DNA from: Escherichia phage NHEP36
Sequence record: PQ511151.1
Reading direction: 5' to 3' (one strand)
DNA length: 64,000 nt
Shown: positions 16,162-17,197 of the stretch, piece by piece
Layout: each line of letters begins with the position of its first letter
How positions within the stretch are numbered: the stretch's first letter is position 1
Notes under the pieces: model-generated
Told to the model about the DNA's origin: nothing
The model's database searches: none
What the model saw: only the letters and a program-made list of their open reading frames with translations
Position numbers and translations under genes: made by a program

Positions 16162-16530
16162 ATGAAAAAATTAATCGCTTTAGCAATGGTATTTGGATTA
16201 ACCGGATGTGGTGCCCATGGCTTTATCCCTAATAACGTTGGCCAATTGATTTACAATCCGAATGTTAAACAGTATGACCAACCTAAAGTTGAAGTGGAAG
16301 ACCCGGTTACTGTAGGTAATCGAATGATTCAAGCTGATGCACATGCTCAACGTTATCGTGATTCTGATACTGTAGCTATGTCAAAAGAACAACGCGTTAA
16401 AGAACATTGTCTACAGGCTACTGAAATCGCATTCATTCGCTATGTTGAAACAACTGGTAAAGAGCCTACCCAGAAACAAATCGCAAATAACTACGTCCAG
16501 TGTATTGAACGTTTAAACAAATTTAATTAA
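16162..16530 (+). CDS. Putative lipoprotein (signal peptide with lipobox LTGC)
   Basis: 122 aa; N-terminal MKKLIALAMVFGLTGC; RBS AGAGGAAAT. Confidence 0.6.
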   Translation: MKKLIALAMVFGLTGCGAHGFIPNNVGQLIYNPNVKQYDQPKVEVEDPVTVGNRMIQADAHAQRYRDSDTVAMSKEQRVKEHCLQATEIAFIRYVETTGKEPTQKQIANNYVQCIERLNKFN

Positions 16531-16591
16531 TTGGTTTACGCCAAAGTTAAAACAAGATATTATAAACATAACAAATCAAGAGGAAATTAAC

Positions 16592-16840
16592 ATGGAATTA
16601 TTCGTAGCTAGTTCAGTAGCGGTTTTAATCGCAGGTATTGGTTCAATTATCATTTACATGTTGCCTTGGGTAATCGCACTTATTCGTGGCACAAAAAGCA
16701 CAACAGCAATCTTCTTTGTATCTTTACTCTTTAACTGGACGATGGTTGGTTGGATTGGAACTTTAATTTGGTCTATCGTTGCCGAAAAGAAATCTGCTCA
16801 GCAGCCTCAACAAGTAATTATTATTCGCGAAAAAGAATAA
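16592..16840 (+). CDS. Small membrane protein (two predicted TM helices)
   Basis: 82 aa; hydrophobic segments at residues 5-30 and 37-65. Confidence 0.6.
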   Translation: MELFVASSVAVLIAGIGSIIIYMLPWVIALIRGTKSTTAIFFVSLLFNWTMVGWIGTLIWSIVAEKKSAQQPQQVIIIREKE

Positions 16841-16844
16841 ACTT

Positions 16845-16883
16845 GTTTACATTATAGATGGACTATAGTATAGTAGTCCTATC
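16845..16883 (+). promoter_or_regulatory. Early promoter embedded in palindrome (GTTTAC, 18 nt, TATAGT; arms GGACTA/TAGTCC)
   Basis: Member of a repeated cassette GTTTAC-N18-TATAGT-AGTCCTATC; approximate coordinates. Confidence 0.55.
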
Positions 16884-16903
16884 AAATCAACTAAGGAGTT
16901 AAA

Positions 16904-17197
16904 ATGAAAAAGTTATCATTGGCAGCAATCTTACTTGCAGTATCATGTGCACCAGCTCCAGTTACGGCAGGTTATGATAAAGACCTCTGTGAGTGGTCAA
17001 TGACTGCAAATCAAGAAGATGTTGAACAACAAATCTTCTCTGATATCATGAACATCACTAAACGAGACCGTCCTAATATGGTTAATAAAGTTGTTGAACA
17101 ACTTAAGTCTGGCGGTATCATGCAGTACAATTACGTTTTGTATTGTGACCCTAATTTCGATAACAAAGATATCGTAACCGAAATCACAGGTGAATAA
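16904..17197 (+). CDS. sp: Spackle (periplasmic superinfection-exclusion protein / lysozyme inhibitor)
   Basis: 97 aa with signal peptide; GYDKDLCEWSMTA...MQYNYVLYCD matches recalled T4 Sp (97 aa). Confidence 0.85.
   Translation: MKKLSLAAILLAVSCAPAPVTAGYDKDLCEWSMTANQEDVEQQIFSDIMNITKRDRPNMVNKVVEQLKSGGIMQYNYVLYCDPNFDNKDIVTEITGE

Follow-up and report, generated by a model that had tools for sequence, protein, structure and literature searches.

A probable superinfection-exclusion cluster of imm.1, imm and spackle in the RB69-type phage NHEP36, and the linkage of the Imm.1 lipoprotein to Imm

The stretch of DNA analysed here, referred to as the window, is 64,000 nucleotides (nt) of Escherichia phage NHEP36 (PQ511151.1), and all coordinates are counted from its first letter. 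The phage is a Mosigvirus, i.e., a T-even phage of the RB69 type. The window contains three consecutive genes that an initial annotation had described as an envelope-targeted group of a lipobox lipoprotein, a two-transmembrane protein and Spackle. Their open reading frames (ORFs), given here with the length of the product in amino acids (aa), lie exactly where that annotation had placed them.

16162-16530, + strand, imm.1 orthologue, a lipoprotein of 122 aa
16592-16840, + strand, imm orthologue, an 82-aa protein with two transmembrane (TM) segments
16904-17197, + strand, sp (spackle, T4 gene 61.3) orthologue, a 97-aa precursor

Each of the three genes matches curated families above the gathering score, and all three are kept at a protein identity of at least 95% in about 154 phage records, so they are real genes and not chance ORFs. 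The surrounding bases 15500-18600 are about 98% identical at the nucleotide level to many Mosigvirus genomes. The locus as such is already known, because the RefSeq entry of RB69 (NC_004928) annotates the same gene order: dmd, 61.4, imm.1, imm, sp and 61.2, where imm.1, imm and sp are RB69p037-p035. The second gene is also named superinfection immunity protein in many GenBank records. The three genes are RB69-type imm.1, imm and spackle, and the view that the first two are unassigned must be given up. The predicted export signals and hydrophobic segments described below do agree with an envelope-targeted cluster.

The 82-aa protein can be assigned as the orthologue of T4 Imm. It matches the Pfam family Imm_superinfect (PF14373; E 1.8e-15, 56.9 bits against a cut-off of 27.9) as well as phrog_1039, "immunity to superinfection" (E 1.2e-30), and is 64% identical to T4 Imm over 83 aligned residues, i.e., over its whole length. 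A 19-residue Kyte-Doolittle scan reveals two hydrophobic stretches, with above-threshold windows that span residues 1-34 and 40-59, and the earlier description as a two-TM protein is upheld. The conserved core of the family, Y-x-x-P...A..R...W....W...IW, is present with all its invariant columns (Y22, P25, A29, R32, I40, W49, W54, I59 and W60), and the tail QVIIIREKE is conserved as well.

Sp matches the whole of the Pfam model T4_Spackle (PF25676; E 1.1e-42, residues 1-96 of 96) and the solved T4 Spackle chains 6X6O and 7CN6 (E 1.4e-39), which supports the naming of this gene in the initial annotation. The identity to T4 Sp is 66%. The only hydrophobic segment is N-terminal, and residues 1-22 probably form the signal peptide, with VTA before GYDK in the window aligned to AMA before GYDK in T4. 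Cys29 and Cys81 are conserved with T4, and the mature form would be 75 aa. The mature T4 protein also has 75 aa, with a disulfide formed by the Cys29/Cys81 pair, and inhibits the gp5 tail lysozyme in the periplasm; the partnership of Imm and Sp is established (PMC7677548). The signal peptide (16904-16969) additionally contains a lipobox-like motif before the accepted cleavage site, LAS-C15 in T4 and AVS-C15 in the window, while the Providencia Sp does not have the C15-type Cys of this motif.

The 122-aa lipoprotein is the orthologue of T4 Imm.1. It matches Pfam DUF5481 (PF17578; E 3.6e-9, 37.4 bits against a cut-off of 27) and phrog_1754 (E 8.8e-29), and aligns with T4 Imm.1 over the full length (32% identity, E 1e-18) with a conserved lipobox. 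The N-terminus, MKKLIALAMVFGLTG followed by C, contains the lipobox LTGC noticed before, with the codon of Cys16 at 16207-16209, and a hydropathy scan finds a hydrophobic stretch at the N-terminus only. From the family alignment we derived a working definition of Imm.1: a lipobox signal peptide, no Asp at position +2 and two conserved C-terminal Cys. The window protein agrees with this definition, having LTGC, Cys16 and Gly at +2. Among the ten aligned sequences, G15, Y31, C83 and C114 are invariant and the lipobox C16 is present in nine. By the Lol sorting rule of E. coli, a lipoprotein without Asp at +2 is expected in the outer membrane. Because Asp is found at +2 in none of the aligned family members, Imm.1 is predicted to be an outer-membrane lipoprotein.

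In the AlphaFold (AF2) model of Imm.1, a disordered tether (residues 17-46) is followed by a helix (48-68) and a helical hairpin (75-98/104-120), which has a predicted local distance difference test (pLDDT) score of about 90 and holds both Cys83 and Cys114. The tether, approximately residues 17-46, carries a conserved YNPNVKQY motif in which the Tyr is invariant. The C-terminal hairpin has a T4-type form, marked by ELWANWANNYQW, and an RB69-type form, marked by ATEIAFIRYVE. No relative of Imm.1 in fold or sequence was found among solved or viral predicted structures. A similarity to T4 61.4, the gene that imm.1 seemingly replaced, was considered and rejected (E 0.13).

The strong ribosome-binding sites reported earlier are evident at each gene; they are of the GAGG type and lie 6-8 nt before each ATG (AGAGGAAATTAAAATG, AGAGGAAATTAACATG and TAAGGAGTTAAAATG). 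The T4 early-type pattern GTTTAC-17 nt-TAnnAT precedes each of imm.1, imm and sp, and a promoter scan gives the following sites.

16105..16133, + strand, promoter-like site for imm.1: TTTACA, 17-nt spacer, TACTAT, with a G before
16535..16563, + strand, promoter-like site for imm: TTTACG, 17-nt spacer, TATTAT
16846..16874, + strand, promoter-like site for sp: TTTACA, 17-nt spacer, TATAGT

The four leaders, those of imm.1, imm and sp and the one after gene 41, align column by column. It is plausible that imm.1, imm and sp are each made early from their own promoter. The promoter and leader of imm.1 are conserved between T4 and the window (AACTGTTTACAAG ... TACTAT ... CTATCAACTACnGA). In the window, imm.1 lies 61 nt upstream of the Imm_superinfect gene, and this unusually long spacer contains the promoter-like site of imm; in the other lineages where the lipoprotein gene comes first, the gap is 0-32 nt, with a short overlap in Serratia phage PS2.

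Two hairpins were seen in this region. The spacer between imm and sp (16838-16906) contains a hairpin GGACTA...TAGTCC of marginal significance (folding free energy, dG, -15 kcal/mol; z -2.25), which overlaps the -10 region of the sp promoter; in the minimum free energy (MFE) structure the outer stem pairs with the Shine-Dalgarno sequence of sp. This hairpin might mask the translation of sp on read-through transcripts. The other, after gene 41 (15503-15558), is a strong terminator-like hairpin GGAGCC-UUCG-GGCUCC (dG -14.9 kcal/mol, z -3.4) with an early-promoter-like site immediately behind it, and fits the composite terminator/promoter (PeSL-type) layout described in T4-type phages (PMC4122927). 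No RNA families were found within 14000-20000, and NCBIfam gave no matches.

In T4 and most of its relatives, the imm.1-imm pair stands between genes 43 and 42. In T4, sp is found 6.3 kilobases (kb) away, with 61.4 and 61.2 as its neighbours. In the window, imm and imm.1 are absent from the 43-42 interval (5902-10234), which contains a sugar cassette, as had been noted for the canonical imm locus. The cassette consists of five genes, encoding a SIS protein of the arabinose-5-phosphate-isomerase type, a 561-aa nucleotidyltransferase-domain protein, a phosphoheptose-isomerase-like protein, a U32-peptidase-like protein and a 76-aa ORF. The gp42-like protein of the thymidylate synthase family (10276-10992) is 25% identical to T4 gp42. 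Using tblastn, a single copy each of imm, imm.1 and sp was found in the 64-kb window, with no second copy of any of them and no remnant of 61.4.

As in RB69, an orthologue of 61.4 separates dmd from imm.1 in the close relative NHEP29, where it has 57% identity to T4 61.4. The window is without this gene; the deletion begins at the stop codon of dmd and reaches the region of the 61.4 stop (16088-16164, against 1195-1512 in NHEP29). The window is also without the 124-aa RB69ORF041c-type gene after gene 41. The alignment thus shows a loss of 61.4 in the window lineage. Since NHEP29 and RB69 keep 61.4 and the window has lost it, the ancestral Mosigvirus state would be dmd-61.4-[imm.1-imm]-sp, with the pair inserted between 61.4 and the sp promoter.

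We suggest that in the Mosigvirus lineage imm.1-imm moved as a unit, together with its own promoter, from the 43/42 position to the position between 61.4 and sp, and that 61.4 was lost afterwards by the window phage. Since T4 and the window have the promoter and leader of imm.1 in common, the promoter would have travelled with the pair. Accessory genes of T4-type phages shuffle as promoter-flanked blocks (PMC4122927), and the imm.1-imm move may have used terminator/promoter sites. The initial annotation had proposed that exclusion functions may have moved here since the sugar cassette occupies the imm locus. The move itself is strengthened, as the two-TM protein is itself the orthologue of Imm, but the cassette does not account for it. 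Serratia phage 4S has gene 43 followed by imm.1, imm, an arabinose-5-P isomerase gene and a GlmU-like gene. Because cassette-type genes and imm.1-imm coexist at the canonical locus in 4S, the sugar cassette alone does not explain the relocation, and it need not have displaced imm.

Imm.1 of the Tequatrovirus/Mosigvirus type is found in 656 records of the phage collection, and an Imm at least 60% identical to that of the window in 655. An Imm.1-family lipoprotein gene adjoins imm in 12 of the 13 T-even lineages examined, T4 and the window included. Here a gene beside imm was assigned to the family by the same layout together with a match to phrog_1754 or to our own Imm.1 hidden Markov model (HMM). 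The lineages are distributed as follows.

Lipoprotein directly upstream of imm: Moonvirus Merlin, Serratia 4S, Jiaodavirus JD18, a Gelderlandvirus, Muldoonvirus PS2 and metagenomic P0002, P0007 and P0008; also T4 and the window
Lipoprotein downstream of imm: Gaprivervirus RZ and fDHCT2 (which groups with JS98/Dhakavirus)
Lipoprotein not seen next to imm: Providencia phage PSTRCR_127, stretch of 3.2 kb

The Imm.1-imm pair occurs in both gene orders and in three contexts: at 43/42, between dmd-61.4 and sp, and beside a frd.3-like gene. By this comparison, imm.1-imm behaves in many T-even genera as a conserved cassette of two genes that can move, and this linkage may be the one new point of the analysis. 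In RZ (2501-3397) and fDHCT2 (1474-2352), the Imm.1-family lipoproteins have the lipobox LSGC and four further Cys, and in RZ a hydrophobic 47-aa ORF lies between imm and the lipoprotein gene.

The clustering of imm with sp follows a different pattern. In Tequatrovirus and Jiaodavirus, sp is 5.4-6.3 kb away from the imm cassette. Providencia phage PSTRCR_127 has, at 1519-1952, an imm gene (PF14373, E 1e-13) that overlaps by 4 nt with the next gene, a Spackle homologue (PF25676, E 3e-21). Since this pair is found in a different genus and neighbourhood than the Mosigvirus pair, the imm-sp adjacency would have at least two independent origins, in agreement with selection for the co-inheritance of exclusion genes.

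Among 1.84 billion representative proteins, no more than six Imm.1 clusters were recovered by a profile search, and a broader Imm.1 profile searched against a set of 5.8 billion proteins found 16 clusters, all phage-like. The Imm.1 family thereby appears confined to T-even-type phages, while Imm itself is far more widespread. Imm.1 is also diverging fast. Its identity between the window and T4 is 32%, compared with 54%-85% for ten other syntenic proteins, and only the gp42-like protein is lower (25%); the rate at which Imm.1 evolves is about double that of Imm and Sp. T2 and T4 Imm.1 are 98% identical. In addition, the N-terminal and C-terminal parts of Imm.1 have discordant histories, i.e., the protein is a mosaic, as the following identities illustrate.

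T4 and P0002: N-terminal part 76%, C-terminal part 19%
Window and P0002: N-terminal part 33%, C-terminal part 49%
P0007 and P0008: N-terminal part 73%, C-terminal part 30%
T4 and P0007: N-terminal part 34%, C-terminal part 45%

P0002 Imm.1 has lost the lipobox Cys and apparently has a signal-peptidase I site in its place (AHA before S). A correlation of the Imm type with the type of the N- or C-terminal module of Imm.1 was considered and dropped, as the pattern is inconsistent and the lineages are too few. The near-constant linkage and the fast mosaic divergence suggest a functional tie of Imm.1 to Imm.

We consider it very probable that the cluster represents the superinfection-exclusion genes of an RB69-type Mosigvirus, where imm.1, imm and sp each stand behind an early-type promoter and the imm.1-imm pair has been relocated. 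By homology to T4, Imm would enter the inner membrane right after infection and stop the DNA of later T-even phages from crossing it; according to Lu and Henning, Imm in the inner membrane reportedly prevents the transfer of superinfecting DNA. Sp would be exported to the periplasm, where it would inhibit the gp5 tail lysozyme of incoming phages. Imm.1 would be held by a lipid anchor in the outer membrane, with a tether of about 30 residues and a small disulfide-stapled helical domain in the periplasm.

For Imm.1 itself, the most likely function is, tentatively, an accessory role in Imm-type exclusion. This role is favoured by the linkage to imm through the relocation, the order switch and the insertion of a promoter, by the restriction to T-even phages and by the fast modular evolution. 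In a more specific form, which we put forward as a possibility only, Imm.1 could be a third, outer-membrane-anchored part of T-even exclusion that works with Imm; the tether and hairpin would be exchangeable modules, and the hairpin would set which phages or tail-tip proteins are recognised. If true, a third component would explain why the gene remains linked to imm through moves and order switches, why it evolves at about twice the rate and why it is restricted to T-even phages.

Several points weigh against these proposals. In 1989, Lu and Henning reportedly obtained exclusion from a plasmid that carried only T4 imm; exclusion would thus not strictly depend on Imm.1. In the 3.2-kb stretch of Providencia PSTRCR_127, imm and sp are present and there is no Imm.1-like gene. 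Exclusion by the RB69-type proteins is deduced from homology, and the fold of Imm.1 gives no functional clue. Finally, the linkage could come from a shared early transcription unit and not from a shared function.

The last point leads to the main rival of an accessory role, to which we give a limited chance of about the same size: Imm.1 may have an envelope function unrelated to exclusion, e.g., acting against a periplasmic enzyme of the host or making the envelope more stable, and be tied to imm only by the common early transcription unit. The reported sufficiency of plasmid-expressed Imm agrees with this, and where the lipoprotein gene comes first the two genes are indeed only 0-32 nt apart or slightly overlapping. 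The shuffling of T4-type accessory genes as promoter-flanked blocks (PMC4122927) points the same way. However, the linkage outlasts both the change of order in RZ and fDHCT2 and the promoter inserted in the window, which hitch-hiking would not do over such divergence, and an unrelated function does not fit well with a family restricted to T-even phages while Imm is far more widespread.

It is rather improbable that Imm.1 masks a receptor as T5 Llp or phi80 Cor does, binding an outer-membrane receptor from the periplasm and preventing adsorption. T2 uses the receptors OmpF/FadL and T4 uses OmpC/LPS (lipopolysaccharide), and despite these different receptors their Imm.1 proteins are nearly the same. 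T-even exclusion acts after adsorption, and Imm.1 is without sequence or fold similarity to any solved protein. What remains in favour of masking is the small size of Imm.1, its predicted place as a lipoprotein of the outer membrane, its two conserved Cys and its early-type promoter; Llp is likewise reported to be a small exclusion lipoprotein (PMC9586334).

The proposal of the initial annotation, that the lipoprotein and the two-TM protein are new genes of a novel exclusion or lysis-control module beside Spackle, is very improbable: both genes are envelope-targeted with early-type promoters and we found no paper on the function of DUF5481 or imm.1, but the two-TM protein shares 64% identity with T4 Imm, which has been characterised by experiment, RB69 RefSeq names both genes, and Pfam, PHROG and structure searches gave no similarity to holins, antiholins or spanins, which leaves the lysis-control role without support. 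A spanin pair of the Rz/Rz1 type would have an inner-membrane partner with a long coiled coil in the periplasm and be expressed late from a lysis cassette. It was also rejected, as no more than about 18 residues of Imm lie outside the hydrophobic segments, the promoters are of the early type and there are no matches to spanin families in Pfam or PHROG.

The genes around the cluster are the following.

14057-15499, + strand, gp41 helicase
15588-15905, + strand, phrog_2110 protein, 105 aa
15902-16090, + strand, dmd
17190-17849, + strand, 61.2 = AdfA
17851-18048, + strand, 61.1-like
18041-18535, + strand, 164-aa protein
18575-19597, + strand, gp61 primase

The 61.2 orthologue is 66% identical to T4 61.2 and matches Pfam AdfA (anti-DarT factor A) with E 7e-120. 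The exclusion cluster lies inside a run of counter-defence genes, with dmd upstream and the AdfA gene after sp. The phrog_2110 gene (15588-15905) overlaps the dmd start codon by 4 nt and has no Pfam match; its product is labelled a putative ADP-ribosyltransferase in one GenBank record, and T4 has no gene at that position. Directly after the primase gene, a hydrophobic 65-aa ORF (19594-19791, - strand) is the lone minus-strand gene in a plus-strand block, and in relatives it is annotated as a hypothetical protein (RB69ORF029w).

Compared with known systems, the locus is closest to RB69p037-p035 of RB69, with which it shares imm.1, imm and sp, their order and their flanks (dmd upstream and 61.2/AdfA downstream). 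It differs from RB69 in having neither the 61.4 orthologue between dmd and imm.1 nor the RB69ORF041c-type gene. With T4 it shares the three orthologues (Imm 64%, Sp 66% and Imm.1 32% identical), and the lipobox and the two Cys are conserved, as are the promoter and leader of imm.1. However, 6.3 kb separate the T4 cassette from sp, and only 11 nt, without a promoter, lie between imm.1 and imm. In the window the cassette is directly next to sp, and the spacer between imm.1 and imm has 61 nt and contains a promoter-like site. The tether of T4 Imm.1 carries a further pair of Cys. Providencia PSTRCR_127 resembles the window in having imm and sp adjacent, clustered independently, but differs in their 4-nt overlap, in the neighbourhood and in having no Imm.1-like gene in the 3.2 kb examined. 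T5 Llp and phi80 Cor provide a working analogy only, that of a small, early phage lipoprotein in an exclusion context. They have no homology to Imm.1, which does not track the receptor type, and Llp blocks adsorption whereas T-even exclusion is post-adsorption.

The locus itself changes nothing, as RB69 has been annotated in this way for years. In PMC5885020, however, Imm.1 is listed as a marker specific to the T4 group, and the RB69 group is said to be without it. Divergent RB69-type counterparts exist for both Imm.1 (32% identity, relocated) and gp42 (25%), and the absence of Imm.1 and gp42 in PMC5885020 is probably an effect of the orthology threshold. This correction bears on which genes isolate T4 from RB69, and the behaviour of imm.1-imm as a cassette across genera nominates the Imm.1 lipoprotein as a testable candidate for a component still missing from the picture of T-even exclusion.

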